Below are positions 7,912-26,064 of a stretch of 64,000 nt of DNA, piece by piece. The stretch spans positions 24,096 through 88,095 of the forward strand of contig JBAXXP010000003.1 in the NCBI GenBank assembly GCA_037127815.1. Direction: 5' to 3'. The notes below the pieces were generated by a model, which was not told the origin of the DNA, ran no database searches, and saw nothing but the letters and a program-made list of their open reading frames with translations. This stretch comes from a bacterium (GTDB lineage: Bacteria > Patescibacteriota > Minisyncoccia > Phycocordibacterales > CAIZLB01). Made by a program: the position numbers and the translations under genes. The stretch's first letter is position 1. Every line of letters begins with the position of its first letter.

Positions 7912-9234
7912 CTAGTTAATTTTCTTACGCTTCTTGCCAGTCTCTTTCTCCCAACGATTCATAATTACTTCAGCATAGACATGAGATTTTTCCATGATAA
8001 AGCAACGTCGACCCATCTTCACAGATGCAATTAAAGTACTTCCGCTTCCTCCAAACGGTTCAAGAATTAAATCGTTTCTTTTCGTTAATACTTTAAGGTA
8101 TGGAATAAGTAGCTCTAGTGGTTTTGTGCCAAAGATAATTTCTTGCCCTGATGATTTTTTATCTGCGGCGGTATGAGATATGAAATCAGTTGGACATATC
8201 TTCTTTCCTTTTTCATATGGTTCAAAATGTGGTTTACCTGAAGTGGCAAAGATTGCATTCTCATATTCATTTTGAAACAATCCCTCCTCAGGCTCAAGAT
8301 TGAGATCTACTTCTCCTGAAGTTCCAACAAGTGCAATATCTGTCTTATTGAAAAACTTATTTGAAGCAGAAAAACCTTGCATACGATTAGGAACATGCCA
8401 AGTGATTGTGTTTCTATATTTCCAATGTACTTCGAGTGCATTCCAGATGGTTCTAAGGTTTTTTGGATTCTCAAAGATAATGATTGAGAAGTCAGGTTTT
8501 TGTACCTTTGCAACATTTGCCATCCAAAGATCCGAGAAATTATCAGGCAAGACATCAGTCTCTAAATATCTGCGATTCTTCTTTGATCCAAATCCAACTG
8601 TTGGACCATCCTTACCTCGACCTTTACCTTTTAAATAGTCTAAGATATATGGTGGATCAGTTAGCACCATATCTACCTTGTTATCTCCCATTAGTTTCAA
8701 CATATCGGCTTCTATTGTGGAATCGCCAATCATTAATCTAGAGTCTCCGAGTTCATAGATATCGCCCTTTTTTGCTTCAACTTTAATGTCGAGCTTATCG
8801 AGTTCTTTTTGTAAATCAAATTGCTCTTCATTTTTCTCGATTGGAAATATGTCATCAATGTCTTCTGAGGTAAAACCAACATCAAGAAGAATTGAGCTAT
8901 CAAACTCAGCGAGCATCTCAAGATCAAATTCTCCTTGATTGCGATTAAGTCTGAGGTTAAGTTCAAGCTCTTTTTCAAGAGGTAAATTCACAAATACTAC
9001 TGGCATATTTTTATATCCAAGTTCCTTGCATACATCAACCCTAAAATGACCTCCAACAATTATCATCTTTCTATCTTCGTGATTATTTACAATAATCGGA
9101 TCAACATTACCGAAACGTCTAATACTTTCCTTGAGCTGTTCTTTTTGCTCCTTACTCCACTTGCGTGGATTTTTATCATTTACCTTCAACTCGTCGATTG
9201 AGACGTACTCAATCTTTAAACTTTCTTTATTCAT
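7912..9234 (-). CDS. ParB-like nuclease domain fused to an N6A/N4C DNA methyltransferase (beta class); phage-type orphan methyltransferase
   Basis: The N-terminus has a ParB-N motif (KNPRKWSKEQ...GGHFR). The methyltransferase motifs are DPPY (IV) then FGGSGST (I), in beta-class order. This fusion is frequent in phage genomes next to terminase genes. Confidence 0.8.
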   Translation of the reverse strand: MNKESLKIEYVSIDELKVNDKNPRKWSKEQKEQLKESIRRFGNVDPIIVNNHEDRKMIIVGGHFRVDVCKELGYKNMPVVFVNLPLEKELELNLRLNRNQGEFDLEMLAEFDSSILLDVGFTSEDIDDIFPIEKNEEQFDLQKELDKLDIKVEAKKGDIYELGDSRLMIGDSTIEADMLKLMGDNKVDMVLTDPPYILDYLKGKGRGKDGPTVGFGSKKNRRYLETDVLPDNFSDLWMANVAKVQKPDFSIIIFENPKNLRTIWNALEVHWKYRNTITWHVPNRMQGFSASNKFFNKTDIALVGTSGEVDLNLEPEEGLFQNEYENAIFATSGKPHFEPYEKGKKICPTDFISHTAADKKSSGQEIIFGTKPLELLIPYLKVLTKRNDLILEPFGGSGSTLIASVKMGRRCFIMEKSHVYAEVIMNRWEKETGKKRKKIN

Positions 9235-10235: not shown

Positions 10236-10371
10236 GATATTCCGACCATATCCTAGAGAATTAAGGGTTCTTTAGGGGTTAGGTCTTTGTTGTTAATGAA
10301 ATGATAGCAGAAAATTTGCTATCTGTCAGTAGCTTAGATATGAGGGTTTGCGAAGCAGAAGTTACCAACAG

Positions 10372-13300
10372 CTAAACTGGCTGAAATTCTCGATAGACAC
10401 GAACTGTTTCCATATAAATAGATTCAATTAAACGTTCCGTTTGCATAATTTCTGTAATTCCTTTTTGAATCAAAAGAAGTCTTACATTCTGACGAATTCG
10501 AGCTTTAATAGTTTCATTATTTGTCCAATCAATAGTTAAGTCTCGACGGATACGCTTTGTAAGTTCTTTTACAAAGTCTTTGATATCTATTCCAGATTTT
10601 TTAAGATCAGGATCTGTCTGAAGAGTATCGTAGAAAGTTATTTCTTCAGGTGAGAGTCCGAGTGATTGGCTCTCTTCATCAAGTTTCTTGATCTCATCAG
10701 CAATTTCCAAAAGTCTTTTGATAATCTCAGCGGAACTGATTACATTATTTTCGTATTTCTCAATAAGATCAGTAAGGAGTGTAAGCATAGTCTCATAACG
10801 AGCCTTGTTCATTTTCATACGAGAAATAATTTCTTGATCAAGTAGTTTGCGAACTGCATCTACAGCAAAGTTTTGGAATCTAACTTTTTTAATTTCTTCC
10901 ACAAACTTCGAATCAAAGATTGAAATACTTTTAGAATCTCCGTTTGTAGAGAACAGATTAATAATATCTTCCGCTTGTATCGCATCATGCACAAGACTAC
11001 GAATAGCACTTTCCGTCTCTTCTGGAAATACCGCCTTAGGTACAACTGTTTGTTTATTAATACTTTCTTTTACTGCCTGTAGAAACTGAATGTCGGTAAT
11101 AATATTCATTGCAGGAGTTGAGGGCATTACAAGAGCATGAAGTTTTGATAGTTTAGATACAACTCCAATATATGCCATCTTTTGGTCATCAGAAAGACGC
11201 TCGTCCTTTGAAATAACCGCATTGATTGATTCTTGAAGAAGATTAGAAAGTTCGATTCCCTTAAGATTTCTCCATCCACTGAAATTTACTCCATACAAAA
11301 AACCAACCGCTTCTGCATGAGAATGATTCATTTCAGAAATAATTTCATCAAGTGGTAGTAAAGCATTGTTCTGTATATCAGAATCATACATCGCGAGAGC
11401 TTTCTTTAGATTTTCAGCGATACCGATATAGTCAACGATCAATCCACCCGGCTTGTCTTTGTATACACGATTTACACGAGCAATTGCTTGCATAAGTCCG
11501 TGGTTCTTTAATGGCTTATCCAAATACATAGTATGCAGATTTGGCACATCGAAACCAGTAAGCCACATATCACACACAATTGCGATCTTGAGTGAATCAT
11601 TTGTTTTCTTGAATCGCTTCTCGAGCTTCTTCATATCACGTTCTGACTGTATCTCATTCGCAAATTCTTCACTATTTGAAATAACCACAGCACATTCTGG
11701 TGCTCCAACAATTTTCTGTATTTCTCTATAGATTGATACTGCAATACGACGACTCATTGTTACCACCATAGCCTTACCACTAATAGGTCGATTATTAAAG
11801 TGATATACAATATCTTTTGCAACTTGCTCAATACGACTTTGTGATCCCACTACTTCTTCAAGCACTGCCCATTCTTTTCGAGCTTTTGCTTTTTCTTCTA
11901 CAACAATTTCTCCCAAAATATCATCAAGTTTTGAATCAACGAATTTATCCGCTAGATGAAGTGGAACCAGGCGTCCTTCATAATAAATAGGAACGGTCGC
12001 ACCATCTTCTACTGCTTGTCCAATTTTGTATGAACTAACAATTGGACCGAATACTGCAAAAGTATCCTTATCGTTTTGCGATATCGGTGTTCCTGTCACA
12101 CCCAAAAAGCTCGCATTTGGCAAAGCCTGTCTTACTGCACCAGCAAAGACACTGTACTGAGTACGATGAGCTTCATCCGTAAGAACAATAAGGTTCTCTC
12201 TTTCTGATAGGACATTCTTTGCATCAGGATCATCTTGAAACTTCTGTATTGTAGTAAAAATGAGTTCACTACCAATGTTTTTTAATCTCTTTTGTAAATC
12301 AAGAATACTACATGCTCTCTTTGCAAGATTGTCATAACCAGTTCTTTTGAATGTTTTATATAGCTGATCATCTAAGTCTTCACGATCCGTCAAAAATAAA
12401 TACGCAGGACTTTTCAATTCTTCAATATTCTTAGTCTTGTTTACATAAAAAACCATAGAGAGTGATTTACCAGATCCTTGTGTGTGCCAAAAGACTCCAA
12501 TCTTACGATCTTGTTCTCCACGCACAGCACGAAGTGTGCTTTCAACTGTTGTATTTACTCCGTAGTATTGATGGTACAAACACATCTTTTTTGTGAATGT
12601 TACAGCTTCACCATCTCCATCCGCTTCAAAAACAAAGAAGTTTTGTAAAACATCCAATAGTCGTGTTCGTTCAAATAATCCTTTAGTTAGTACTTCTAGC
12701 TGATTAGTATTCTTTGGAGCATCAATAGGCGTTGTGATTCCTTTCCACGTTCCATATCTTTCCCATGAAGATGAGATAGTCCCATGTCGTGCATTAATAA
12801 GATCAGAGAGGCCAATTATTTGATTGTATAAAAAAAGCTTAGGTATTTCTTTCTTGTATCTTTCAATTTGACGGTATGCTTCACCGATAGTTACAGATCC
12901 ATGAACAGCACTTTTAAGTTCAAACAAGCCAACAGGTAAACCGTTGATAAAAATAACCACATCAAAGCGATTTGTAGTATCTATTCCTTGTACAGTAAAT
13001 TGATTGACCACCAAGAATTCATTGTTATCTCCATTTTTAAAATCAAGAAGTTTAACTAAATCTGTTTTTTCTTCGCCGTTTTCTCTCCATGTTGTTTTTT
13101 TGCCATTCACGAGCCATGAATAAAACTCCTTATTCCCAAGCATCGGATCATTATGGTGATAATCAGAAATTTCTTTTACTACAATCTCTGCTTGATCAGC
13201 GGGAATTTGAGGATTAATTCTGCGAACAGCACCAAGAAGACGATCTTTTAAAACTACACCCCGAAAATCCTCACGTTCTGCATGAGGTTGCCCAGGATTA

Positions 13301-13392
13301 ATATCCGGACCGTATACATACTCATAACCTTGATCTTGTAGCCATTCAATGAGTGATTGTTCTGTTAAATTGTTTTCGTTTAAGTTTTTCAT
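10372..13392 (-). CDS. hsdR: Type I restriction enzyme R subunit (HsdR)
   Basis: 1006 aa with SF2 helicase motifs (HTQGSGKS, DEAH-like LTDEAHR) and an N-terminal nuclease region. Last gene of the RM operon. Confidence 0.9.
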   Translation of the reverse strand: MKNLNENNLTEQSLIEWLQDQGYEYVYGPDINPGQPHAEREDFRGVVLKDRLLGAVRRINPQIPADQAEIVVKEISDYHHNDPMLGNKEFYSWLVNGKKTTWRENGEEKTDLVKLLDFKNGDNNEFLVVNQFTVQGIDTTNRFDVVIFINGLPVGLFELKSAVHGSVTIGEAYRQIERYKKEIPKLFLYNQIIGLSDLINARHGTISSSWERYGTWKGITTPIDAPKNTNQLEVLTKGLFERTRLLDVLQNFFVFEADGDGEAVTFTKKMCLYHQYYGVNTTVESTLRAVRGEQDRKIGVFWHTQGSGKSLSMVFYVNKTKNIEELKSPAYLFLTDREDLDDQLYKTFKRTGYDNLAKRACSILDLQKRLKNIGSELIFTTIQKFQDDPDAKNVLSERENLIVLTDEAHRTQYSVFAGAVRQALPNASFLGVTGTPISQNDKDTFAVFGPIVSSYKIGQAVEDGATVPIYYEGRLVPLHLADKFVDSKLDDILGEIVVEEKAKARKEWAVLEEVVGSQSRIEQVAKDIVYHFNNRPISGKAMVVTMSRRIAVSIYREIQKIVGAPECAVVISNSEEFANEIQSERDMKKLEKRFKKTNDSLKIAIVCDMWLTGFDVPNLHTMYLDKPLKNHGLMQAIARVNRVYKDKPGGLIVDYIGIAENLKKALAMYDSDIQNNALLPLDEIISEMNHSHAEAVGFLYGVNFSGWRNLKGIELSNLLQESINAVISKDERLSDDQKMAYIGVVSKLSKLHALVMPSTPAMNIITDIQFLQAVKESINKQTVVPKAVFPEETESAIRSLVHDAIQAEDIINLFSTNGDSKSISIFDSKFVEEIKKVRFQNFAVDAVRKLLDQEIISRMKMNKARYETMLTLLTDLIEKYENNVISSAEIIKRLLEIADEIKKLDEESQSLGLSPEEITFYDTLQTDPDLKKSGIDIKDFVKELTKRIRRDLTIDWTNNETIKARIRQNVRLLLIQKGITEIMQTERLIESIYMETVRVYREFQPV

Positions 13393-13396
13393 AATA

Positions 13397-15169
13397 TTAA
13401 TTAATTTTTTCTGAAAGAAAATTAAAGATTTTCAAGAATTTATTTTTAGTTTCATTCGAAATTTCAAACTCCTTATTTTCAGCCAAAAGCATTTGAATCC
13501 CACTATTGAATTTTGATTTTTCATAAACTGTGGACTTTGGATCAAAATACTTAGTGATTCCAAGTTTTTCTGTTTTACTAAACAGTTCTTCACAAGAGCA
13601 CTTATCAAAAGAAATATCTATGTCACTTAAATCGAATATTCGATTATGAATATCGACACCAAACTCTTTTAAATATCTTTTCTTTTGTAACTTTCCTTCC
13701 TTATCTGCATCTAATAAACCAACGAAATTTCTACCCCATGATACATACAGAGCAATTGGTTGATCTAATTTACTTGCACCTGTTCCTGGATAAAAATTAA
13801 AATTCTGTAATTTTAAAATAACTTTGCAGATGTACTTAAGCGAATAATAATCATTTTTCCCTTCAGTTATAATTATTGGAGGCACCTCTTCTAATAGACC
13901 AGGTTGATATTCGAGCACATCCAGAATAGGCTGAAAATAAGCAGCGTCTGAAGGATTTTCTGCGACAAATTTTTTGTACTGTATTGCTTCAACATCAGTT
14001 TGTGAAGCATCAAAACTTACCTCATCATTATAATTTAACGCCTTATTTCGAACAATGTACGCTCCAGATAACCATTCTGGATTAATTAGATGATGACTAT
14101 GGGTCGTATAAATTAACTTTGATTTCTTTGTGATCTCACTAAATGTACTCAACAGATTCTTCTGAGCAGTTGAATGTAGATTTGAAGCTGGCTCATCCAA
14201 TAGAAAAAGTATTTCCCCAGAACTTGAAATTCTTTCTTTTCTAAACTCAGTAAAAAGAAGGAAAGTAAAAAACCACCTAAAACCAAGACTTCTTTCTGAT
14301 ATTGAGAAAGTATCTACACCTTCTTTAAGACGAAGTTCTAAATAACTCCTACCTTCTGGATCAATATCGGTTGAAACAATGATTTCCTTTTTCCCAATTT
14401 TTGAAAATTTACCCCAAGCTGAAAATACCACTTTTGAAATTTTAGCAGCCATCAAACTCTCGGTTTTTTCTAAAGCTTGCTTGTTTGCAGCAGTAGACTT
14501 ATTCTTTAAATTATTCAAAATTGTTTCTTCTACAGTAAATGTCCCATTGATTGTAGATAATACATCTTGAATAATGTTGTAATACTGCATCTCTGTAGAA
14601 GATACTGTATTAGGTTCGAGATATATCCTCTCTGGAAACTTCGCCAAGAAGTCTGGATAATATATTACTTCTGGTAAAAATTCTTCTTTTATATGTTTAT
14701 AAATTTGTTGCTTTTCATTTAATGGTAACTCGATAAATTTACCACCTTTTTTCTTTTGTCCTTCAATATCTAATCCGAATTTAATTTCAGTAGTAGTTGG
14801 AATAGCTCGATCAAAATTATAATATCGATAAATTTTTAAATTTTCAGGGAATTTGAAATCAACGTACTTTGTAATATTTGTATTTATATATTTTTTAATT
14901 TCTACAACATCATCTGATGAAAAATTTATTGTTGCTATTATTTCAGTGGCACCAGTAAAGCTTGCAGTATCAGATTTTGGTATGAGATTATGTCGTTGAT
15001 CCATGAGTGCTTCATTGGAAAGATTATAAATAGCCTCTAGAATAGTTGTCTTACCACTCTCGTTTAAACCAACTAAAGTAAAAATTTTTGAATCAACAGG
15101 AAAATTAACATTAAGATTTAGTTCTTTAATGCCCTTATATTTTTTTATTTTAAAATTTGAATAGTACAT
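13397..15169 (-). CDS. OLD-family / Gabija GajA-like ABC-type ATPase with C-terminal Toprim nuclease domain, embedded between hsdS and hsdR
   Basis: Walker A GLNESGKTT, ABC-type Walker B LLDEPASNLH and H-loop TTHSHH. C-terminal Toprim motifs IIITEGKNDY and LLDADKEG. Gaps of 5 bp and 4 bp to the flanking genes imply one operon. Confidence 0.75.
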   Translation of the reverse strand: MYYSNFKIKKYKGIKELNLNVNFPVDSKIFTLVGLNESGKTTILEAIYNLSNEALMDQRHNLIPKSDTASFTGATEIIATINFSSDDVVEIKKYINTNITKYVDFKFPENLKIYRYYNFDRAIPTTTEIKFGLDIEGQKKKGGKFIELPLNEKQQIYKHIKEEFLPEVIYYPDFLAKFPERIYLEPNTVSSTEMQYYNIIQDVLSTINGTFTVEETILNNLKNKSTAANKQALEKTESLMAAKISKVVFSAWGKFSKIGKKEIIVSTDIDPEGRSYLELRLKEGVDTFSISERSLGFRWFFTFLLFTEFRKERISSSGEILFLLDEPASNLHSTAQKNLLSTFSEITKKSKLIYTTHSHHLINPEWLSGAYIVRNKALNYNDEVSFDASQTDVEAIQYKKFVAENPSDAAYFQPILDVLEYQPGLLEEVPPIIITEGKNDYYSLKYICKVILKLQNFNFYPGTGASKLDQPIALYVSWGRNFVGLLDADKEGKLQKKRYLKEFGVDIHNRIFDLSDIDISFDKCSCEELFSKTEKLGITKYFDPKSTVYEKSKFNSGIQMLLAENKEFEISNETKNKFLKIFNFLSEKIN

Positions 15170-15174
15170 ATAAT

Positions 15175-16314
15175 CTAAATTAATTTTGCCAATAATTGAT
15201 CTCTTTGTGACCTTAGAGAAATGTTTTCAACATATAACGATATTTGTTTTTCAAATAAGTTACTTAGAATTTTGTCAGCTTTTCTGAGTAAGGATTCATT
15301 AGGTATTAGAACTAATGCGTCACTTATATGGTGTCTTTGTATGTGACCCATAGTCGTAGCTTTTCCTTCTGCAATCGCTTTAAATTCTTGAAGGTGTCTT
15401 TGTAAATATTGATACACAAACCATTTTGGGTAATACTGCGAAGTGACTTTGAATATATGCTGATTCAAAATTCCATCTTCACCAATCCACACCATTACAG
15501 AAAGACTCCCAGACCAAGCAAACAAGATATCTCCCTTTTTGATAATGTATTTTGTGTCTATATTTTTAGTTGCTCGATCAGAACTTTTATCAATACCGGA
15601 ATTCATCTCTCGTATTTTGATAACAGGAAATGAATCTTCCTGTCTTTCAGCTGGATATTTTTGTGAAGCAACTCCATTTAAAAAATCAGCTATTTTATCT
15701 AATCTTTTAACCTCCCACCCTTCAGGAATTTCTCCTAAATCACTCTCAACCATTTTCACATTCTCATACCCTGGAAATTTGAAATCAATAAGCCATTCAT
15801 TAAAAATAGTCTGGGCTGTTGTTTCAAGATTTTTTATAATAATATTATTATTTTCTATTTTTTTATCATAAGCACTCAAAATAGAGGCAATCCTTTTTTG
15901 AGTTTCTTTACATGGTGTTTCTACACTAATACTGTAAATAGTATCTCGATTTAAACCAGGAACAGCAGAATCGCCTCCATATCTAGGTAGATTAATTCTT
16001 TGTAGAAGATAGTAAACATACTTTAAATCAAAATCTTCAGAAACTTCATCGACATAGAAAACTGTATCTATTGGATATGATTCCTTTTCTGAATATGATA
16101 ACGATCCGACATTTCCTTTACGACCAATTATTATGGATGGTTTTTTTACCTTTGATTCATTATGAAAACCTACTAAACCACTTGATGCATAAACAGGAAT
16201 AGCACCCATTACTCGATTACGTTCAGGTAATCCAAAACCATATTTAATTTCCATCAAATCAGAAATTTGATGTGCTGTTTTTTCAATATTTATTTGTTCC
16301 AATAATTTAGTCAT
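15175..16314 (-). CDS. hsdS: Type I RM specificity subunit (HsdS), two target-recognition domains
   Basis: 379 aa with the typical HsdS repeat architecture and conserved central/C-terminal helical spacer motifs. Confidence 0.85.
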   Translation of the reverse strand: MTKLLEQINIEKTAHQISDLMEIKYGFGLPERNRVMGAIPVYASSGLVGFHNESKVKKPSIIIGRKGNVGSLSYSEKESYPIDTVFYVDEVSEDFDLKYVYYLLQRINLPRYGGDSAVPGLNRDTIYSISVETPCKETQKRIASILSAYDKKIENNNIIIKNLETTAQTIFNEWLIDFKFPGYENVKMVESDLGEIPEGWEVKRLDKIADFLNGVASQKYPAERQEDSFPVIKIREMNSGIDKSSDRATKNIDTKYIIKKGDILFAWSGSLSVMVWIGEDGILNQHIFKVTSQYYPKWFVYQYLQRHLQEFKAIAEGKATTMGHIQRHHISDALVLIPNESLLRKADKILSNLFEKQISLYVENISLRSQRDQLLAKLI

Positions 16315-16315
16315 A

Positions 16316-17152
16316 TTATTTTTTACAATTAGAACACAGGTTCATACCTGTTAACGAAATTGATGCTGAATTAAAATCATAAGGATATGTTTTCCCACAC
16401 TTGCTACAAATCTGATTTCCTAACACATAGTGATTATTATTTAATAAATCAGACTTACCAAGAGAGAAGGATGTACTGTCTCCTAAAGTTGTAGCACTAA
16501 ACAAAACAGATTCTCTTTCTTTTTTCATGTTTTTAATCTGTTTTTCTAGCTGTGCAATTTTTTTACCAAACCCCTCTTGCTCTACAGCTGTTGCTGATTG
16601 AGCTAATTTCATTTTTTGATCTAACAAATCCATAACAAATGCTCTGTATGTTTCATTAAACTTTTCTTGAACTTCTTTTTCACTCCTAAGCGTTGGATCT
16701 ATATCAATCCAGTCCTCATACCCAGAGTTAACATTTAATTCAATCACAGATAAATGACGATCAATCTCATTTAGTTGAGGTTTTACATCTCTTGTTGCTT
16801 TCTTACTAAAGGTCATCACCCAGCAACGTAAACTACCAATTTGTTTTTGTATCGACTGCAAATTACGTACAGCAGACTGACCTTTTTTTCGAAGTATATT
16901 TTCACCTGTAACTTTTGAATACTCATTTTGGAATATACCTCCGGCTATTCCACCAGTTATACTTCCGAATACAGCTAAAAGATTTGAAAATAATTCATTT
17001 GTTTTAAACCATATAGATAGACCGAGTGAGATGATGGTAACTACTATAAAAACAAGGAACCATGGATCAAAAATCATGTTTGCAAAACTATTCCATTTTT
17101 GTTTAAGTCTAGTCATATATTTAAAATCCAAGTTCTTTAAGATTATTTTCAA
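16316..17152 (-). CDS. Hypothetical membrane protein: 2 N-terminal TM helices, coiled-coil, C-terminal zinc ribbon; embedded between hsdM and hsdS
   Basis: TM segments FLVFIVVTIISLGLSIWF and LLAVFGSITGGIAGGIF. C-terminal CSKCGK...CSNCKK. It overlaps the hsdM end by 32 nt and lies 1 nt from the hsdS start. Confidence 0.5.
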   Translation of the reverse strand: MKIILKNLDFKYMTRLKQKWNSFANMIFDPWFLVFIVVTIISLGLSIWFKTNELFSNLLAVFGSITGGIAGGIFQNEYSKVTGENILRKKGQSAVRNLQSIQKQIGSLRCWVMTFSKKATRDVKPQLNEIDRHLSVIELNVNSGYEDWIDIDPTLRSEKEVQEKFNETYRAFVMDLLDQKMKLAQSATAVEQEGFGKKIAQLEKQIKNMKKERESVLFSATTLGDSTSFSLGKSDLLNNNHYVLGNQICSKCGKTYPYDFNSASISLTGMNLCSNCKK

Positions 17153-18914
17153 TTTGTTTCTCTAGCTCTCGACCATTAGCAAAAGCATCTCTCAGTTCCA
17201 CCGAAAGCTTTTGCATTTTTTCTTCAAATGAAATTCCATCATCTTCTACATCAGCAAGTCCAACATATCTTCCCGGAGTTAATACGTATCCATTCTTTTT
17301 TATTTCTTCCAAATTTGCTGATTTACAAAAACCAGAAATATCTTCATATTTTTCTACACCTGATTCTTCACGCCAAGCTTTAACAGTATCTGTTATTTTT
17401 TTAATATTTTTTTCATTAAAAACTACCTGCTTACGTGAAATCTGTTCAAACGTATCTCGAGCATCAATAAACAAAGTTTCTCCAGATCGTTTTCGAAAAC
17501 GGTCACCACCTTTGTTTTTTGATAGAAACCAGAGAGATACAGGAAGTGATACGTTGTAAAAAAGTTTTGATGGACAAGAAATTATTACATCAACCAAATC
17601 TGCTTCTATAAGTTTTTGACGAAGCTCTCCTTCTTTACCAGATACAGCTAATGCACCATTAGGCATAACAAATCCAGCTTGACCATTTGGAGCAAGGTGG
17701 TGAGTAAAGTGCTGTACCCAGAGGAAGTTTGCATTTCCACTTGGGGGTATCCCAAGAAAGATTCTTGGATCATTATCAGAAAGTTTTGAAGGATCCCATT
17801 CTGCATTAAACGGAGGATTTGCAATTAAAAAATCTGCCTGGAGATGAGGAAACATATCTTTGTAATAAGTATTTCCAAGTTCAATCTTTCCTGAGAGACC
17901 ACGAATAGCAAGATTCATTTTACATAAACGAAGTGTTGTTTGATTACTTTCTTGTCCACTGATAGAAAGTTTTGAAGGATCCATCTTGTGATCTCGTAGA
18001 TATTCACCCATAGATACAAACATGCCCCCACTACCACAAGCAAAGTCTGCTACACGAGCATTTTCATACGGCTCAAGTATTTCTGTAAGAAGCTTAACAA
18101 TTGATCTAGGGGTAAAAAATTCCCCTCCACGTTTTCCTTCAGATGAAGCAAACTGACCTAGGAAGTATTCATAGATACGACCAAGAATATCTTTCTCACG
18201 ATCAAAATCATGGTCAAAAGAAATTTGTGAAAAGATATTTACAAGTTCTCCAAGAACAGTATGGTCAAGGTTTACTTTGGTATATACACGAGGAAGAACA
18301 TTTTCAAGTTGAACTGGATTATCCTTTTCGATGAGTTCCATTGCAGTATCAAGAATTTTTCCAAGATCAGAACTCATTGTTTTTGTTTGCAAAAATTCCC
18401 AACGAGATTTTTCTGGCACATAGAAAACCCCTTCTGATGTATAGAAGTCTTTTGTTTCAAGAATCGCTTTTCGTGCTTCTTCAGTAGGAACATAAAAGTC
18501 TTCGTTTTTTGGATCTTTTGTCAGATCAGCAAGAACTTCTCTTCGTTTATAGAATGAATCAGATATATATTTCAAAAAGAGAAGACCGAGAACAATATTC
18601 TTGTACTCTGACACATCCACATTGCCTCGCAATTTATCTGCCGCCATCCAAAGTTCTTTTTCAAAACTAAGGTCGTGGTGATGATTCTTATCTAAAACCT
18701 TTTTAGTGACGCTTTTTTGCTGTTCACTAATACGGTTCTGTATATCTTCTGAAAGAGAAGACATTGGGATCAAATATGTTGGTTTAGAGGGGTCTCCTAT
18801 ATTTTCAGCCTTAATTTCACCTTTTTTGATCTTTTGGTGAATGGCTATACGACTAATACCCAACATCTTTGCGAGTTGTGTAGGAGTTACAAATTGTGTT
18901 TTATCGATTGACAT
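17121..18914 (-). CDS. hsdM: Type I RM methyltransferase subunit (HsdM) with an N-terminal HTH extension
   Basis: Catalytic NPPF motif (LIANPPFN) and AdoMet motif DFACGSGGMF. The first ~70 aa (LAKMLGISRIAIHQKIKKGEI) resemble a MerR/excisionase-type HTH that HsdM normally lacks. Confidence 0.9.
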   Translation of the reverse strand: MSIDKTQFVTPTQLAKMLGISRIAIHQKIKKGEIKAENIGDPSKPTYLIPMSSLSEDIQNRISEQQKSVTKKVLDKNHHHDLSFEKELWMAADKLRGNVDVSEYKNIVLGLLFLKYISDSFYKRREVLADLTKDPKNEDFYVPTEEARKAILETKDFYTSEGVFYVPEKSRWEFLQTKTMSSDLGKILDTAMELIEKDNPVQLENVLPRVYTKVNLDHTVLGELVNIFSQISFDHDFDREKDILGRIYEYFLGQFASSEGKRGGEFFTPRSIVKLLTEILEPYENARVADFACGSGGMFVSMGEYLRDHKMDPSKLSISGQESNQTTLRLCKMNLAIRGLSGKIELGNTYYKDMFPHLQADFLIANPPFNAEWDPSKLSDNDPRIFLGIPPSGNANFLWVQHFTHHLAPNGQAGFVMPNGALAVSGKEGELRQKLIEADLVDVIISCPSKLFYNVSLPVSLWFLSKNKGGDRFRKRSGETLFIDARDTFEQISRKQVVFNEKNIKKITDTVKAWREESGVEKYEDISGFCKSANLEEIKKNGYVLTPGRYVGLADVEDDGISFEEKMQKLSVELRDAFANGRELEKQIENNLKELGF

Positions 18915-19033: not shown

Positions 19034-20347
19034 ATGAAAATACAAAAACCGCTACAAGTGACTCCTGACGAGGTCGCACCAATTAAGTACTGTCTTTACG
19101 CACGTAAATCAACCGAGCAAGAGGATAAGCAAGCATTATCAATAGAATCGCAGGTTAAAGAGATGATAATTCTAGCCGAGCGAGAGGGGTTGGAAATAGT
19201 CGAAATTAAGCGAGAATCGCACTCCTCCAAGGAGGTTGGGCAAAGACCTGTGTATAACGAGCTTATCAATGAAATCAGACAAGGCAAGTTCAACGGAATT
19301 CTGACATGGGCACCTGACAGGCTAAGTAGAAACGCTGGAGACCTAGGATCAGTAGTTGATCTTATGGATCAGAAGCTTCTACATGAAATAAGGACTTATG
19401 GACAGAAGTTTACAAATAATCCAAATGAAAAGTTCTTACTGATGATTCTTGGTTCACAAGCAAAGCTTGAGAATGACAACAAGATGGTAAATGTGAAGCG
19501 AGGACTTAGAGCGAGGTGTGAGATGGGACTATGGCCGTCCGTTCCCCCAACTGGGTACCTAAGCCACTCTGATAGAAATAAAAAATGTGAAGTATTACCT
19601 GATGAACAGAGAGCTTGTGTGATTAAACAAATGTTTGAAAAAGTTGCATACGATGGATGGTCAGGTCGAAAACTTTTCAAGTGGTTAGAAGAAGATATAC
19701 GATTTAAGACAAAACATGGAAAAGCACTGACATTGAGTAATGTATACATAATTCTCAAAAGTACCTTCTACTATGGTGAGTTTGAATATCCAAAAGGAAG
19801 TGGACAATGGTATGTAGGAAAACATGAGCCAATCATAACCAAAGATTTATATAACCAAGTACAGGATAAGATAACAAATGATCACTTAACGAGAACCCAA
19901 GATAAAGAGTTTGCGTTTACTAAGATGATCACCTGTGGACTATGTGGATCAGGAATTACCGCTGATGAGAAATTCAAGAAACTCAAAGACGGAACAACAA
20001 ACAGATACGTATATTATGGATGTACAAAGTTTAAAGATAAGGATTGTCCGTGTGGATACATACGAGAAGAAGACCTAATCGAACAGTTGGCAAATATATT
20101 AGATACAGTTTCGTTAGATGAAATAGGTATGAAATATAAGATCAAAACTGAAATTGAGTCACACAACGAATTTCAAGAGTCAGTATTAGGAAAGGAGGTG
20201 AAAGAGAAAACAAAGATTAAAGATGTTGATATAAGAAACTATGCAAAGCATATTTTGCGGAAGAGACCACTGTACGAAAAGAGAGAACTACTAAGTCATT
20301 TAAGAAGTAAATTGGTACTAAACGAAAAACAAATTAAGATTAAATAA
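19034..20347 (+). CDS. Large serine recombinase (intact), paralog of the pseudogene at 2635..3972
   Basis: 437 aa. The resolvase catalytic domain has a YARKST...SIESQ serine motif. It is followed by a recombinase domain and a zinc ribbon (CGLCGS...YYGCTKFKDKDCPCGY). Confidence 0.85.
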   Translation: MKIQKPLQVTPDEVAPIKYCLYARKSTEQEDKQALSIESQVKEMIILAEREGLEIVEIKRESHSSKEVGQRPVYNELINEIRQGKFNGILTWAPDRLSRNAGDLGSVVDLMDQKLLHEIRTYGQKFTNNPNEKFLLMILGSQAKLENDNKMVNVKRGLRARCEMGLWPSVPPTGYLSHSDRNKKCEVLPDEQRACVIKQMFEKVAYDGWSGRKLFKWLEEDIRFKTKHGKALTLSNVYIILKSTFYYGEFEYPKGSGQWYVGKHEPIITKDLYNQVQDKITNDHLTRTQDKEFAFTKMITCGLCGSGITADEKFKKLKDGTTNRYVYYGCTKFKDKDCPCGYIREEDLIEQLANILDTVSLDEIGMKYKIKTEIESHNEFQESVLGKEVKEKTKIKDVDIRNYAKHILRKRPLYEKRELLSHLRSKLVLNEKQIKIK

Positions 20348-23300
20348 CCTCTGGAGTGATCGCATCAGAATTAATCTTTTCGGCATTTACTACTTCTGCA
20401 AGATAATCGTCTAAGACTTTGAAAACAGGTGCGAGATCCTCTCTATATGTTGCTGTGTAATTACCAACATACAACGTCTTTTCTTTTTCATTAAGATTCA
20501 TTGCCTTTATGGCGCTAGAATTTTTTTGCCAATATTCAGCTAATTTTTCCTTATGTAAAACCTTTGTAAATTCGTTAATGTGAGGAATATAATTCCGACC
20601 ATCTTCTCTTGCAGATGCAAATACACTTGCGAAATTTCTTAAAAGATAATCGATGAAATGCTCTACATTCTCGGGTGATGAAGGATTAAAGCACACGTCA
20701 AAGATGTAATCATTTATAGCATCAGCAATTTGATGACGGTCATCGTTTCCTGTTGGATCATAATATCCACAACCAACACCACTGCTTATTATTGAATTTC
20801 CAAGTTGATAAATAGTAAAGCCTGTTATTATACTCTTAAGTACAGCGACTTGTTTATCTAAATCACCTTGAGAAATCTTGCTATTAATGACTTGTGATTC
20901 TAGATAGTCTTTATACTGGCCTGCTAAATCTTTCAGTTCTAGATTTGATATTTCCTCAAAAATGTTTCGCTTAGTATCTATATACTGCTTTTTAAAAATA
21001 TCGAAGACTTTCTGTGATATTTCCCGCATTTCTTCCTTGGCAATCACTTGAGTATTTCCTTCAGTTGGTGCACCCTTATCAGAATGTTTTGATAATGCAC
21101 GACTCAAATCAAAAATATCTCCACCTCTGTCAGCACTGCAATACAAGCGAAACGCCATAAGATCGTAGAGTCCGAGAACACCTCTTGTCGGTAATGAAAG
21201 TTTTTCCAAAACACCACAGCCAGAGTGTTCTCCTTCTCCGAAAATCCATTCAGCAATTTCCTTTATGTTTTTTTCTGTATTCCCAGAATGTTTTCCTGAA
21301 TCATCACTCCATCCAGCATCATTCAATAGACGTATCAAGAATAGATCTGAGTCTTTTCTTAATCCTACACCAATATTCTCTATTTCAATATGCGAATAAT
21401 CAGGCAGATTATCAAGTAAATGGGTAATAAGTATATTACTAATATTTGGAGGTAAACTTCGAGCATTGTTTACTATAATTCGCCACAGCTTTGCACGAGT
21501 AAACTCACCTTTATCAAAGGCAAATTTCGGGTCAGCAAATGCATCTTCAATAGTTTTTGAACCTGAGGCTATCTCGTCTTTCCAGTTAGCGTAAAACCTA
21601 TGCTGTTCTGTATCTTCAGGTTTAGCAAATTCGACTATTAATCGCAAATACGCTTCCAAATTTCTTCCATTTGTCCATCCACCATTAAAACAGGCATATG
21701 AGGTTTTAATATCTTCTGATACACCATCTATACGAGCATACGTATCTCGGTGCGGAAACTCTGCATTTGTACCAAGTCTTACATTAACATCAAAAATCCT
21801 ATCAAGAAGAAATTTTTGACGACTCATGTCGGGAAAGTGTTTTATATATTCAGTGTAGTATGTTGAATTTTTATACTCTGATTCACTAAATGATCCTCTT
21901 CTCTGACTACTGTCCTCTATAGGATATCCATCTTCATGAGGTAGAACTAACGAAAAAAAACCTCGACTACCGTTTGTCTCGCTATCATAGATTTTTCTAA
22001 AAATATTTGGAAAGTGAATATAAATCAAAAGGAGGTGAATAAGATCTTGCTTATCAAAGTCAGTATTTTGAAAATCTGTACTTTCAAGTTCAAAAAGAAC
22101 CACCGTATTAATCAGTCTTTTAAGCTTTCTGACATCGCCAATAAATGGAAGATAGTTATGGTAGCCTGACGATTTATATATATCAAGTAAGCCACCTAAT
22201 GCCTGACGAACAAGAATAGGATCTACCAACTTAGTAGAAACAGCCTTATCAAGATTATCTGAAACATACTTAGCAAGATTTTCTTTATCAAGAAAAAGAC
22301 TAATTTTTATATTTACAAATTTTTCAAGAAACTCGCTTATCTTTTCAGCGTCAGGTGTCTCAGATTCAAGAATCCCTATATTTTCTGTATCATAACAAAG
22401 CACATAAGAAATATTTGGTAATACAAAGCTCTTTCTAATAACAAATAAAATATCCTTTATTTCAGAAAAAGTCATTCTATCTAAATCATCAACAATAATA
22501 ATAACTTTCTTTTTAAATCTTTTTAATACGGCATTTAAATCATCAAAAGCTTCGTCTGCGGTATAATCTACAGTCAATGTTGGTAAACTAAAACCAAAGA
22601 TTGAAAAACGATTAACCTCTCTAAGTAATCTAGCATATCTCGAAATCAAAGGTTTTATTTCTGGTACGAATGAATCTTTTTGAATTGAGTGTATTAATCC
22701 ATCAACAAAAACCTCCAATAAGTTTTTGCTCCCAGCATACCTCAAGGGGTTAAACTTAAAAATAACAGTTTTATTACTCTGATTTTCATCCCAATGTTCT
22801 TTACAAAAATTTATAAAAGAGGATTTACCAATACCCCAAGGAGCATCAACTCCAAAGACAAAACTTTCTGAGTTTCCATTATTGAAGACTCTTTCAGCAA
22901 ATTTATTAGCCTTATCAGCAAGATTGAGCAGATCATTTTTTCTTTCCTTAAGTTCATGATCTGAGAGAAAATTTGATTCAGTTTCTTTTTTCTTCCAAGA
23001 AATTGATCTGAAAATAACAAAAGCAGTAAGGATTACTGGAGCAAAAACTAAAATCAGTAATTGCTGAAATGAAAATGATATGACTAATTTTTTATACCAA
23101 TCATATAAAAATCCTCCCCATGCTACATCTATCCAAATACCGAAACAAAGAGCCGTTAAAACATCAAAACGATAGCTTCTATAAAATTTACACAGATCTT
23201 GAACAGTATCTCGTATCAACACATAAAACAATGTCGTAATAATACCCAATGACGCCCCCAAAATAATCCATCCTTCATGACCAAACTTCGATATTGCATT

Positions 23301-23531
23301 GTTTAATTGAAGAGAAAAAGCTTGTGAAAAATAGAAAACCTCAACAAATAAAATACCAAAAAATACTGTTTTTATAATGACAATAAGATTCGCCGTAATA
23401 AGCCCAGGATCAGAAAAATAGTCCTTAAATTTAGAATATTGTTGTTGGGTCCTTTTCAAAAGTGTAGTTTGCTTCATAACGGCAATTATACTGTTATTTT
23501 GAAAAAGTTCGAGCCCATGACTGGTGCTCAA
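20340..23531 (-). CDS. KAP-family P-loop NTPase with N-terminal multi-TM region
   Basis: 1063 aa with the KAP Walker A VDAPWGIGKSSF. Four to five hydrophobic helices precede the NTPase domain. Confidence 0.75.
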   Translation of the reverse strand: MSTSHGLELFQNNSIIAVMKQTTLLKRTQQQYSKFKDYFSDPGLITANLIVIIKTVFFGILFVEVFYFSQAFSLQLNNAISKFGHEGWIILGASLGIITTLFYVLIRDTVQDLCKFYRSYRFDVLTALCFGIWIDVAWGGFLYDWYKKLVISFSFQQLLILVFAPVILTAFVIFRSISWKKKETESNFLSDHELKERKNDLLNLADKANKFAERVFNNGNSESFVFGVDAPWGIGKSSFINFCKEHWDENQSNKTVIFKFNPLRYAGSKNLLEVFVDGLIHSIQKDSFVPEIKPLISRYARLLREVNRFSIFGFSLPTLTVDYTADEAFDDLNAVLKRFKKKVIIIVDDLDRMTFSEIKDILFVIRKSFVLPNISYVLCYDTENIGILESETPDAEKISEFLEKFVNIKISLFLDKENLAKYVSDNLDKAVSTKLVDPILVRQALGGLLDIYKSSGYHNYLPFIGDVRKLKRLINTVVLFELESTDFQNTDFDKQDLIHLLLIYIHFPNIFRKIYDSETNGSRGFFSLVLPHEDGYPIEDSSQRRGSFSESEYKNSTYYTEYIKHFPDMSRQKFLLDRIFDVNVRLGTNAEFPHRDTYARIDGVSEDIKTSYACFNGGWTNGRNLEAYLRLIVEFAKPEDTEQHRFYANWKDEIASGSKTIEDAFADPKFAFDKGEFTRAKLWRIIVNNARSLPPNISNILITHLLDNLPDYSHIEIENIGVGLRKDSDLFLIRLLNDAGWSDDSGKHSGNTEKNIKEIAEWIFGEGEHSGCGVLEKLSLPTRGVLGLYDLMAFRLYCSADRGGDIFDLSRALSKHSDKGAPTEGNTQVIAKEEMREISQKVFDIFKKQYIDTKRNIFEEISNLELKDLAGQYKDYLESQVINSKISQGDLDKQVAVLKSIITGFTIYQLGNSIISSGVGCGYYDPTGNDDRHQIADAINDYIFDVCFNPSSPENVEHFIDYLLRNFASVFASAREDGRNYIPHINEFTKVLHKEKLAEYWQKNSSAIKAMNLNEKEKTLYVGNYTATYREDLAPVFKVLDDYLAEVVNAEKINSDAITPEVI

Positions 23532-23585
23532 AAATATTCTTCCTAAACGACCATTTTAGGTGTTTAGGTAGGTCTCACTAAACTG

Positions 23586-23656
23586 CTGGGAGACTAGGAA
23601 TCGAACCTAGATTAAAAGCTTCAAAGGCTTCTGTCCTACCTTTAGACGATCTCCCA
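23586..23656 (-). tRNA. tRNA-Gln (anticodon UUG)
   Basis: Manual fold of the minus-strand sequence TGGGAGA TC GTCT AAAGGTA GGAC A GAAGC CTTTGAA GCTTT TAAT CTAGG TTCGATT CCTAG TCTCCCA G. It has a 7-bp acceptor with the U1:A72 typical of bacterial tRNA-Gln, a G73 discriminator and a GGTTCGATTCC T-arm. CCA is not encoded. Its 3' end points toward the KAP/recombinase island. Confidence 0.8.
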
Positions 23657-23777: not shown

Positions 23778-24224
23778 TCAACAGTCATCTCCCTTGGGGC
23801 CGGAGGGGTTTGGGACGATCTTGAAATCAAGATCAACAAATCGCTTATAATTTTGCTCCAGTGTAATCTGGTTCCAAACAAGTGCACTATAGCCGATCAC
23901 ACCTATCAGGACCTCAAAGGATCCATAGCAATGGAAGCCACCGTGGGCAATTGAGAATAGTGGTATAAACAGAGCGAGTCCAAATGAAATAGCTGCGCAA
24001 AGCTTCCTAATGACGTCATACATTGGCTCAATTGAGGCCTCGTCTTCCTCTTCCTTGCATATTTGCCTAAACTCATCAATCCTGTAATAGATAAACATGA
24101 TGTATGGGAGTATAACCAACACCTTCATAATCCACAGTCTAACTAGACCCTCGGGGTGAATTGCTGACAATAGAACAAGAATGAACGCACCTATAATGGT
24201 CGTCCACATGATTTTCGATTTCAT
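23778..24224 (-). CDS. Hypothetical integral membrane protein (4 TM)
   Basis: 148-aa ORF with hydrophobic helices. Confidence 0.45.
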   Translation of the reverse strand: MKSKIMWTTIIGAFILVLLSAIHPEGLVRLWIMKVLVILPYIMFIYYRIDEFRQICKEEEDEASIEPMYDVIRKLCAAISFGLALFIPLFSIAHGGFHCYGSFEVLIGVIGYSALVWNQITLEQNYKRFVDLDFKIVPNPSGPKGDDC

Positions 24225-24480: not shown

Positions 24481-24885
24481 TTAGATTAAAAAAGAAAGGA
24501 GTTTTGCCTTCACCCTTTCAAAATCACTTATATTCATATCCTCTATTTTCCTTATAAATCTTTTAAGACTGACTGAACGAGTCTGCGCCATATTCACTGC
24601 ATTTGGTATGCTTTTTCCATTTAAAAAATATACAAAATTTTTGTCGTCTTTCATCTTACTCGTAGTTGGCGCAACTAATGCTCCATATTTATTAAAAATC
24701 TTAATAACAACAACAGGTCTTTCAAAACCATGATTTTTACCACTTACTTCAACTCCAATATTTTGACCTAGGTTTACCCACCATATTTCTCTTGCTTTTG
24801 GATATAAAAATCTTTCAGATTTATGTATTCTTATTTTCAGATTATTCCACTTATTAAAAATTTCCGATATTTCATCATTATTCAT
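24481..24885 (-). CDS. MazF/PemK-family endoribonuclease toxin-like protein, no adjacent antitoxin gene
   Basis: Region REIWWVNLG...GFERPVVVI...VAPTTSK...KAKLLSFL aligns motif-for-motif with E. coli MazF (GDLIWVDFD...RPAVVL...CVPCTTQSK...IKAKINVLI). It has a 30-aa N-terminal extension. The 96-bp upstream gap holds no ORF. Confidence 0.65.
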   Translation of the reverse strand: MNNDEISEIFNKWNNLKIRIHKSERFLYPKAREIWWVNLGQNIGVEVSGKNHGFERPVVVIKIFNKYGALVAPTTSKMKDDKNFVYFLNGKSIPNAVNMAQTRSVSLKRFIRKIEDMNISDFERVKAKLLSFLI

Positions 24886-24981: not shown

Positions 24982-26064
24982 CTACTCCAAACACTCCGCC
25001 ACAACCATCTCAAGTGGTAAGGTTGGAATCGCGCTTTTTCCAAGTCTTCCGTGAGCAATCAATAGTCTCTCTAGTATTAGAGATATCTTCTTTGGTGACT
25101 TCATCGCTAGTCTTTCTGCATCTGTTGCACTTCCCTTCTCTTGATCAAATGCAATTGGCTCACCTGGAGCTCTCACACTTCCACTACTCATACTCATAAG
25201 TAATGTCTTTCTAACACTTTCAAGAACAAGCTCGGTGAACAACTTCACATCTCCTCCATTTTCTCTAACTGCATCAAGTTGTGCCAGGGCAAGTGGGGCG
25301 TCTCCAGTTATTATTCCTCTTGCGAAACTACCAACAGTTACACTCTTTGGAGCTCCTGTAATTTGTTCAACTTCAGCAAGACTGATTTCTTTTTTATCAT
25401 CCCCTGCAAGAGAAAGAACTTTTTGCAAAACACTCAATGTGTCTCTAAATGATCCATCGCCAAGAAGAGCCAAGAGACTACCTACTTCATCGTCAATTGT
25501 AATTCCCTCTTTCTTTGCAATATCAATCGATATTTTTTTTAGAACTTCTACATTTGGTTTCTTGAATTGAAAAGTCTGACATCGTGAAATAACGGTTTCT
25601 GGCAACTTATGCATTTCTGTTGTTGCGAGAATAAATATTACATGTTTTGGGGGCTCTTCTAGAGTTTTCAGGAATGCATTAAAGGCCGATTTTGAAAGCA
25701 TATGTACCTCGTCCAAAATATAAACTTTGTAAGCTGAATCAAAAGGCATTGTATGCACTGATTCATTTAATGTTCTTATATCATCAACACTAGTGTTTGA
25801 TGCGGCATCAATTTCATATAGATCTTTATCAGTTGTACCAAGCTCACGAGCAAAAATTCTAGCAACACTTGTTTTTCCTGTCCCTCTTCCTCCACAGAAT
25901 AGATATGCATGAGCAACCTTTCCTGATTTTATTGAATCCTGAAGAACTGAGACAATATGCTCCTGTCCTATTACTTCAGAGAAATTTGCTGGACGATATA
26001 TTCTATATAAGGACGAGTGATGTGTTTGAGATGTTGTTGTTTGCTGTGTGGTTTTTGAAGACAT
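24982..26064 (-). CDS. dnaX: DNA polymerase III subunit gamma/tau (short form)
   Basis: Clamp-loader AAA+ motifs HAYLFCGGRGTGKTS and ILDEVHML, plus the SRC motif. Confidence 0.85.
   Translation of the reverse strand: MSSKTTQQTTTSQTHHSSLYRIYRPANFSEVIGQEHIVSVLQDSIKSGKVAHAYLFCGGRGTGKTSVARIFARELGTTDKDLYEIDAASNTSVDDIRTLNESVHTMPFDSAYKVYILDEVHMLSKSAFNAFLKTLEEPPKHVIFILATTEMHKLPETVISRCQTFQFKKPNVEVLKKISIDIAKKEGITIDDEVGSLLALLGDGSFRDTLSVLQKVLSLAGDDKKEISLAEVEQITGAPKSVTVGSFARGIITGDAPLALAQLDAVRENGGDVKLFTELVLESVRKTLLMSMSSGSVRAPGEPIAFDQEKGSATDAERLAMKSPKKISLILERLLIAHGRLGKSAIPTLPLEMVVAECLE

Follow-up and report, generated by a model that had tools for sequence, protein, structure and literature searches.

A Type I restriction-modification operon carrying a predicted OLD-like ATPase-Toprim protein and a putative membrane zinc-ribbon protein

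Gene content of the operon

The subject of this report is a five-gene operon at positions 10372-18914 of a 64,000-nucleotide stretch of DNA, hereafter called the window, which spans positions 24,096 to 88,095 of contig JBAXXP010000003.1 in the Patescibacteriota assembly GCA_037127815.1. The operon encodes a restriction-modification (RM) system of Type I, and its two intergenic slots are filled by genes that are not RM components. The slot between hsdM and hsdS holds a gene for a putative membrane protein with a zinc ribbon, which we call X. The slot between hsdS and hsdR holds a gene for a protein that is predicted to join an ABC ATPase to an OLD-type Toprim domain, and we refer to this protein as ATPase-Toprim. 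On balance we favour the view that the operon combines a functional Type I enzyme with two independent add-ons, wherein ATPase-Toprim would act by itself and X would be a stable companion of the methyltransferase at the membrane. The features of the operon are as follows.

17121..18914, minus strand: hsdM, Type I methyltransferase subunit of 597 amino acids (Pfam, PADLOC; NCBI record MEI6042533.1)
16316..17116, minus strand: X, putative membrane zinc-ribbon protein of 266 amino acids (start fixed by alignment, length as in NCBI)
15175..16314, minus strand: hsdS, specificity subunit of 379 amino acids with two target-recognition domains (Pfam, PADLOC)
13397..15169, minus strand: ABC ATPase with predicted OLD-type Toprim domain, 590 amino acids (Pfam for the ATPase, predicted fold for the Toprim domain)
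10372..13392, minus strand: hsdR, restriction and translocase subunit of 1006 amino acids (Pfam, TIGR00348)
10303..10323, minus strand: terminator-like hairpin, 49 nucleotides past the hsdR stop codon (match to a consensus pattern only)

An earlier note on this DNA, made from the letters alone, had described five co-directional and almost contiguous genes, and the list of open reading frames (ORFs) agrees with this description. The gaps of 1 nucleotide between X and hsdS, 5 between hsdS and the ATPase-Toprim gene, and 4 between the latter and hsdR were given correctly. The note also had hsdM and X overlap by 32 nucleotides, which proved to be wrong. The overlap arises when X is started at the TTG at position 17152 (278 amino acids), and we dropped this longest-ORF artefact for the ATG at 17116. 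All 24 aligned homologs of X start at the residue that matches this ATG (M-K/T-x-L-K-x-K-W, with W8 invariant), and the X protein in NCBI (MEI6042532.1) likewise has 266 amino acids. Thus, X is placed at 16316-17116, only 4 nucleotides past hsdM, and the junction reads TAA-ATAT-ATG.

Pfam matches bear out the claim that this is a genuine Type I RM operon with two non-RM genes in its slots. HsdM matches N6_Mtase (5.8e-100) and HsdM_N (1.9e-23) in Pfam and MTase_I (2.6e-156) in PADLOC. HsdS matches Methylase_S (7.3e-29) over two stretches and the PADLOC model Specificity_I (4.3e-89) over its full length. HsdR matches HSDR_N (7.1e-46), SWI2_SNF2/ResIII (1.6e-71 for SWI2_SNF2), T1R_D3-like and T1RH-like_C (7.5e-62), and the NCBIfam model TIGR00348 hsdR at 1.4e-179, with a score of 598.8 bits against a cut-off of 284.55. 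All the hallmarks of a Type I system are found, namely HsdM, an HsdS with two target-recognition domains, and an HsdR with a nuclease, a superfamily 2 motor and a C-terminal assembly domain.

The five ORFs do not exist by chance, because they are long and have homologs at E values of 1e-50 to 1e-250. The earlier note had considered that its reading might depend on mis-called ORFs or pseudogenes, but all five genes are intact, none is a pseudogene, and every family-invariant motif is preserved in the 590-amino-acid protein. Its proposal of one transcript is plausible to judge from the sequence, since the gaps are only 1 to 5 nucleotides and the sole terminator-like site that a consensus scan found outside coding sequence in the operon is the hairpin after hsdR. 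A scan for promoters returned fewer sigma-70-like sites than in shuffled sequence, and none was convincingly placed. Within hsdM there is also a perfect 19-nucleotide direct repeat (AGAAAGTTTTGAAGGATCC) at 17778-17796 and 17964-17982, with 186 nucleotides from copy to copy.

The two embedded genes

X begins with a short, basic N-terminus, followed by a strongly hydrophobic helix at residues 18-37 (mean Kyte-Doolittle value of 2.4) and a second, uncharged glycine-zipper segment at residues 43-63 (GSITGGIAGGIF). Past this hairpin there is a conserved basic stretch (KKGQSAVRNL), some 130 residues of helical or coiled-coil character that include EIDRHLS and SGYEDWIDI motifs, a variable linker, and finally a CxxC...CxxC zinc ribbon (C237/C240/C261/C264). 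Among 109 sequences, three of the cysteines are invariant and C237 is at least 90% conserved; this threshold is also reached by W8, P18, G59, G79, A82, R84, L86, E117, W136, D138 and P141. Basic residues flank the hydrophobic hairpin on both sides, and this sequence pattern implies that both termini of X would be cytoplasmic.

A word-indexed search found 26 homologs of X, whereas exhaustive HMMER recovered 537 cluster representatives, which are almost all full length and of which 343 score E<=1e-10. Pfam, PADLOC, NCBIfam and PHROG yielded no family for X, only sub-threshold coiled-coil noise, and Zn_ribbon_8 matches 7 of 109 family members. A Foldseek search of the PDB with the predicted structure of X gave nothing at E<=0.001, with only CorA-like and coiled-coil noise below that level. 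For the scanning of loci, the broad alignment of the family (A4) was too divergent and an alignment of 24 sequences (A2) was used in its place.

The genomic contexts of X associate it with methyltransferase genes. Fetched loci carry L-numbers, and the 34 other X loci are those in the ranges L001-L013 and L094-L120. Among homologs that are at least 34% identical, X adjoins a methylase gene of the N6_Mtase family or an S gene in 17 of 20 distinct contexts. The RM-adjoining contexts span four types of restriction system, as listed here.

L094, L100, L006, L098, L099, L009, L095, L097, L102, L013, L103: Type I operons with X that are related to the operon of the window
L106: Type I operon with the order hsdM-X-hsdS-gene for 287 amino acids-hsdR, whose HsdM is just 29-32% identical
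L107, L108: type IIB/IIG-like systems with the order LexA-like repressor, fused HSDR_N_2 and N6_Mtase protein, X, Methylase_S
L109: fragment of an Eco57I-type methylase gene directly upstream of X
L105: X in a Tsp45I Type II system

The start codon of X follows the methylase stop codon after 4 or 5 nucleotides in the seven other loci where both ends were called (L006, L009, L013, L094, L095/L096, L099 and L106). In addition, when loci are compared in pairs, the identity of X correlates with that of HsdM (Spearman coefficient of 0.83 for 28 pairs from 8 loci) and with that of HsdR (0.74). X would have resided in this operon lineage for a long time, in contrast to the swappable cargo in the hsdS-hsdR slot. 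We also considered whether X and the gene that follows it form a two-gene module, and rejected this candidate on finding that the 283-amino-acid gene of L006 and the 286-amino-acid gene of L001 are unrelated (E=0.26).

Two features of a regulatory kind were seen alongside X. The HsdM of the window has an additional N-terminal helix-turn-helix (HTH) domain (Pfam HTH_17, residues 9-56, window positions 18747-18890). An extra N-terminal HTH domain is present in several HsdM proteins whose genes precede X; it is of the HTH_17/MerR kind in the window and in L106 (6287-7996), and of the HTH_11 kind in L013 (2491-4284). This domain may be an autoregulatory feature of the X-bearing operon lineage. A gene for a LexA-like S24 peptidase or repressor precedes the X-bearing RM module in L107 (2493-7775) and L108 (5374-10138), and an S24 peptidase or repressor gene lies directly ahead of X in L010-12 (L010 4752-6262). 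These S24 peptidase genes hint at SOS-type control of X-bearing modules.

The protein in the hsdS-hsdR slot is composed of an ABC ATPase (residues 1 to about 390) and a predicted Toprim domain (residues of about 430-590). Residues 1-362 match Pfam AAA_15 and AAA_21. In PADLOC, the best match is AriA (6.6e-20, over the whole AriA model), although the same region also hits the generic AAA_15 and the models for mad3, Old, GajA, PtuA and AbiLi. PADLOC models that match the N-terminal part more weakly are mad3, retron ATPase-Toprim, Old, GajA and PtuA. When 22 members of the family are aligned (A1), they show invariant Walker A (GLNESGKT, G34-T41), signature-like (ERSLGFRWFF, E292-F301), Walker B (LLDEPASNLH, L323-H332) and H-loop (THSHH, T356-H360) motifs. 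In the C-terminal part, E436-G-K-x-D440 and D487-x-D489 are invariant as well.

The assignment of the Toprim domain draws on a predicted structure. In the AlphaFold model (mean predicted local distance difference test score, or pLDDT, of 81), E436 is located after a strand at 432-435 and the DxD motif after a strand at 482-486, as is canonical for Toprim domains. In Foldseek, the structures that score best are full-length GajA (8u7i_A, 1.1e-14) and the Thermus OLD protein (6p74, 3.7e-14). At the level of fold, the model thus supports the earlier description of this gene as an OLD-like ABC ATPase joined to a Toprim domain. The sequence likeness to PDB entries is limited to the P-loop region (profile matches of 8e-5 to 9e-6), and a profile search of the PDB with the Toprim-domain alignment (A3) gave no meaningful match.

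There are more than 3,500 proteins in a metagenome-scale database that match ATPase-Toprim, and they are typically about 590 amino acids long and about 50% identical. Relatives occur in 386 GTDB species, counted by species representatives, from many phyla. We fetched 80 of these loci, searched their flanks with the Hsd proteins of the window, and clustered the neighbouring ORFs all against all. A locus was considered hsd-flanked when hsd genes lie on the same strand within 3.5 kb, and fully flanked when at least 3 kb is available on both sides. By this measure 15 of the 80 loci (19%) are hsd-flanked, as are 10 of the 60 (17%) with full flanks, whereas about 80% of the homologs have no hsd gene within 3.5 kb. 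Most of the embedded genes occupy the hsdS-hsdR slot (at least 10 homologs), and in L087 the flanking genes are hsdM and hsdS. Homologs of both inserts therefore recur within hsd operons elsewhere, contrary to the concern of the earlier note that they might never be linked to hsd genes.

Across the 80 loci, hsdM, hsdS and hsdR are the sole recurrent neighbours of the ATPase-Toprim gene, and neighbour clustering detected no recurrent helicase or other conserved partner gene. Minor repeated neighbours are serine recombinases, in 7 loci, and a type III-like methylase, in 5. In a neighbour-joining tree, the hsd-embedded members turn up in nine or more separate places, a pattern that points to repeated insertion or loss. 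Collections of plasmids and phages contain neither X nor a close homolog of ATPase-Toprim, and in IMG/VR there are just 6 relatives of the ATPase and X is absent.

In the other fetched loci the inserts do not travel together. All of the 80 ATPase loci lack X, and ATPase-Toprim is missing from the 34 other X loci, of which roughly half extend as far as the hsdS-hsdR slot. Where the other fetched loci are readable at both slots, none repeats the pairing within an hsd operon that the earlier note proposed looking for. The most instructive case is L006, a syntenic sister island with identities of 84% for HsdM, 69-72% for X and about 74% for HsdR, whose flanks carry a serine recombinase and a ParB-methylase as in the window. 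In L006 a 325-amino-acid gene (12852-13829) replaces the ATPase-Toprim gene, and an additional 283-amino-acid gene (10806-11657) follows X. Because the inserts never co-occur in the other fetched loci and the cargo of L006 differs, the five-gene set is a snapshot of a modular locus and not a conserved unit.

Among X operons, the cargo of the hsdS-hsdR slot changes nearly every time and consists of ATPase-Toprim, the 325-amino-acid protein, Fic, Fic with a PDC-S32-like protein, a 177-amino-acid protein, or a 445-amino-acid coiled-coil protein with DUF3800 proteins. Fic is therefore found twice. These slots are exchange hotspots, and several of the cargo genes are unannotated defence candidates. 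Besides the genes of L006, cargo of related operons is located at the following coordinates.

L009: 3208-5243
L099: 7447-8577
L097: 3332-5423
L103: 542-2749

Interpretation of the embedded genes

In the reading that we favour, this operon would have picked up two accessory genes of differing evolutionary standing, which probably are co-transcribed with it. ATPase-Toprim is most likely, as far as its sequence and distribution indicate, an autonomous single-gene defence nuclease that is carried as cargo, because only a minority of homologs are hsd-embedded, these are scattered in the tree, and no partner recurs beyond the hsd genes. By analogy with OLD-type nucleases, the ABC ATPase would serve as a sensor or switch, and its ATP-dependent dimerisation would gate the cleavage of nucleic acid by a two-metal Toprim domain. 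Presumably the protein works by itself as a second-line defence nuclease, like Class 1 OLD, GajA and HEC-04/IbfA. It would then gain from riding a mobile and co-expressed RM operon, and not from physical control by the RM complex.

X would be a membrane-anchored hairpin with its coiled coil and zinc ribbon facing the cytoplasm. Its gene would be translationally coupled to the gene for an HsdM-type methyltransferase and is usually followed by an S gene. Perhaps X acts with the methyltransferase and specificity module at the inner membrane, either as a tether or as an effector that is released when this module is disturbed. The analysis shows what the genes are, that they are intact, their fold and spread, the contexts in which they lie and how X diverges along with HsdM; co-transcription, nuclease activity, a defence role and an interaction between X and RM proteins are all steps that we infer.

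A number of observations weigh against this reading. There are three close contexts with no RM gene at the junction: in L001 X lies in a defence island with DpnI, Shedu and Fic, in L003 it lies among housekeeping genes, and in L010-12 it lies behind an S24 peptidase gene and near a type III-like RM system. In addition, there are four loci in which a distant homolog (23-27% identity) lies upstream of lnt, the gene for apolipoprotein N-acyltransferase, and one in which it adjoins AbiTii. Because three close contexts lack RM genes and distant homologs adjoin lnt, X may work without an RM system. The count of 17 in 20 overstates the number of independent events, since many X contexts share ancestry, and the correlation between X and HsdM likewise uses pairs that are not independent. 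One pair, L013 and L106, is incongruent, with X 49% and HsdM 35% identical. Furthermore, the AlphaFold2 model of X, made from an alignment of 24 sequences, is poor (pLDDT of 59). For ATPase-Toprim, the Toprim call derives from a predicted structure and four invariant acidic residues, and sequence profiles (Pfam, PADLOC and PDB) are silent on it. Finally, an embedded fraction of 17-19% far exceeds that of a random gene, and ATPase-Toprim may therefore be linked in function to Type I RM, for instance by sensing anti-restriction proteins.

The lnt gene is directly next to the X homolog in L118, and one small ORF intervenes in L113, L119 and L120. These lnt-linked homologs may represent a separate, envelope-related branch of the family.

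The alternative that survives best, which is compatible with the favoured reading, is that X, and not ATPase-Toprim, is the part coupled to the RM system. X would then be a membrane tether for HsdM and HsdS, or a guard effector with membrane-perturbing glycine-zipper helices. The position of X beside N6_Mtase-family or S genes in four RM backbones, its conserved spacing of 4-5 nucleotides after the methylase gene and its co-divergence with HsdM all speak for this idea. Moreover, its embedded fraction is closer to the behaviour of PrrC than to that of ordinary cargo, and a cytoplasmic zinc ribbon and coiled coil, as predicted, would suit the binding of protein or DNA. The idea is weakened by the contexts without adjacent RM genes, the lnt-linked homologs, the shared ancestry that inflates the count, and a low-confidence model for which Foldseek found no structural analogue. 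We therefore hold it only tentatively, as a possibility that is somewhat doubtful. The same caution applies to a broader suggestion, to which we give about one chance in four, that X founds a new class of RM accessory protein: a membrane-anchored zinc-ribbon partner that co-evolved with HsdM-type methyltransferases across Type I, IIB/IIG-like and Type II systems. Such a class would bring restriction to the inner membrane, the point of entry of foreign DNA, or would stand guard in the manner of PrrC against anti-restriction proteins that block the M and S subunits.

The earlier note had compared the locus to prr, in which prrC lies between hsdS and hsdR. By this analogy an EcoPrrI-like RM complex would keep ATPase-Toprim latent until a phage anti-restriction factor unleashes the nuclease. 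The comparison stands as regards gene position and the fusion of an ABC-type NTPase to a nuclease, and the share of homologs within hsd operons, mostly in this same slot, is much higher than expected of a random gene. It fails as regards the nuclease domain, which is Toprim by predicted fold and not of the PrrC anticodon-nuclease type, and the PADLOC matches listed above include no PrrC model. It also fails as regards distribution, because PrrC is described as occurring almost exclusively within Type I RM operons (Payne et al., bioRxiv 10.1101/2024.01.29.577857) and ATPase-Toprim is hsd-flanked in only 15 of 80 or 10 of 60 loci, with no other conserved partner among the remainder. Furthermore, the sister island L006 has the same RM enzyme without ATPase-Toprim. 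Thus, a guard mechanism of the prr type appears unlikely.

Slightly less probable still is that the 590-amino-acid protein is a merged AriA-AriB, that is, a fused PARIS system that senses Ocr-like DNA mimics, cleaves tRNA and backs up the RM system. The AriA match covers the whole model, fused AriA-AriB proteins have been reported (PMC11464382), and a sensor of anti-restriction makes biological sense in an RM operon. Unfortunately for this idea, the AriA model is essentially a generic AAA_15 ATPase, and the C-terminal 200 residues match no Pfam or PADLOC family, DUF4435 and AriB included, even at E<=10. The nearest structures are GajA and OLD, with no PARIS structure in the Foldseek top 50, and the Toprim domain of about 160 amino acids compares with an AriB of 35 kDa. 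The likeness to PARIS that the earlier note drew does not extend to membership. Finally, it is very improbable that the five genes evolved together as a single defence system with five obligate components, since their tight packing in an apparent single transcription unit is outweighed by the absence of each insert from the loci of the other (0 of 80 and 0 of 34) and by the different cargo of L006.

Genomic setting and relation to known systems

The operon is located within a small defence and mobility island, on a contig 93.5 kb long. This island also includes a serine recombinase gene divergent from hsdM, a PifA-like KAP NTPase gene, a tRNA-Gln gene, a MazF toxin gene and an orphan ParB-methylase gene. 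Its neighbouring features are listed here.

2635-3972 and 19034-20347, plus strand: paralogous large serine recombinase genes in the same orientation, with about 72% nucleotide identity and 16,372 bp apart; the first is split into two ORFs (225 and 215 amino acids)
7912-9234, minus strand: orphan fusion of ParB_N and an N6_N4 DNA methyltransferase, downstream of the operon; its position is kept in the sister island L006 (17602-18927)
9645-10061, minus strand: ORF of 138 amino acids with an N-terminal hydrophobic helix, about 300 nucleotides downstream of hsdR, with no family match
20340-23531, minus strand: KAP-family P-loop NTPase of 1063 amino acids (PADLOC PifA model, 1.7e-27), between the serine recombinase gene and tRNA-Gln (23585-23656)
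24481-24885, minus strand: PemK/MazF-type toxin gene adjoining dnaX (24982-26064)

The recombinase paralogs bracket both the RM operon and the ParB-methylase gene, which suggests nested or tandem integrative elements. The KAP NTPase is likely to be an abortive-infection gene.

It is now recognised that RM operons carry additional immune genes, and this locus supplies two concrete candidates. ATPase-Toprim is a single gene and is easily testable. X carries more weight, with its 537 cluster representatives and no annotation anywhere. If it physically links RM enzymes to the membrane or stands guard over them, X would be an extra component of the oldest known defence system, and would bear on two long-standing questions, the cellular site at which Type I enzymes act and the response of cells to anti-restriction proteins. 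If X is merely one more passenger, this is an ordinary case of embedding.

The earlier note did not recognise this combination of genes as a described system, but it is already established that Type I RM operons harbour embedded defence genes. Such embedding has been surveyed systematically under the name guilt-by-embedding (Payne et al. 2024, bioRxiv 10.1101/2024.01.29.577857). Other examples include PrrC, TgvAB on VPI-2 of Vibrio cholerae, whose genes are embedded in a Type I operon (PMC11411939), and the Campylobacter rlo genes, according to a passage of the same article that cites them. Embedded genes in the literature are often autonomous systems. As at this locus, they are co-directional, tightly spaced, placed in intergenic hsd slots, and varied in cargo between related operons. 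The two inserts differ from them in that neither matches a full PADLOC v2 family, HEC and PDC candidates included.

Stand-alone ATPase-Toprim nucleases are also known as a kind. The single-protein defence systems HEC-04 (bioRxiv 10.1101/2024.01.29.577857) and IbfA (PMC12111858) have been validated experimentally. HEC-04 was found through its embedding in another defence system, and its defence needs the Walker A motif and the acidic Toprim residues (bioRxiv 10.1101/2024.01.29.577857). The protein of the window shares with them a single-gene form and the same domain logic, and the likeness is one of domain logic; the distance from K62 to E319 in HEC-04 contrasts with a longer one from K40 to E436 here. 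Like Class 1 OLD proteins (P2 Old and Thermus scotoductus OLD, 6p74) and GajA, the window protein would combine an ABC ATPase and a Toprim domain in one polypeptide of about 590 amino acids. Similarly to OLD, it is encoded by a stand-alone gene and has a Glu and a DxD after what are predicted to be Toprim strands 1 and 3. Unlike OLD and GajA, whose sequence similarity to it is found only at the P-loop, it has a Toprim domain that the Pfam and PADLOC models miss. It differs from Gabija as well, since hsdS and hsdR flank the window gene and no GajB- or UvrD-like helicase recurs in 80 loci.

With the prr locus (EcoPrrI and PrrC) there is a common arrangement, an NTPase-nuclease fusion between hsdS and hsdR, but the nuclease domain here is predicted to be Toprim and most family members are not embedded in RM operons. 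With PARIS (AriA and the DUF4435 Toprim protein AriB) there is a common pairing of an ABC ATPase and a Toprim domain, AriA is the best PADLOC match of the ATPase, and fused forms are known, but the DUF4435 and AriB signals are lacking and the structural neighbours are OLD and GajA. What is new for this protein is a large OLD-like family that lies outside current defence databases, its full-length form being absent from PADLOC and Pfam. More important is the novelty of X, which is tied far more consistently to the methylase-S junction than ordinary cargo is. It represents an unannotated family of membrane zinc-ribbon proteins, whose position-specific link to HsdM-type methylase genes extends across RM types.

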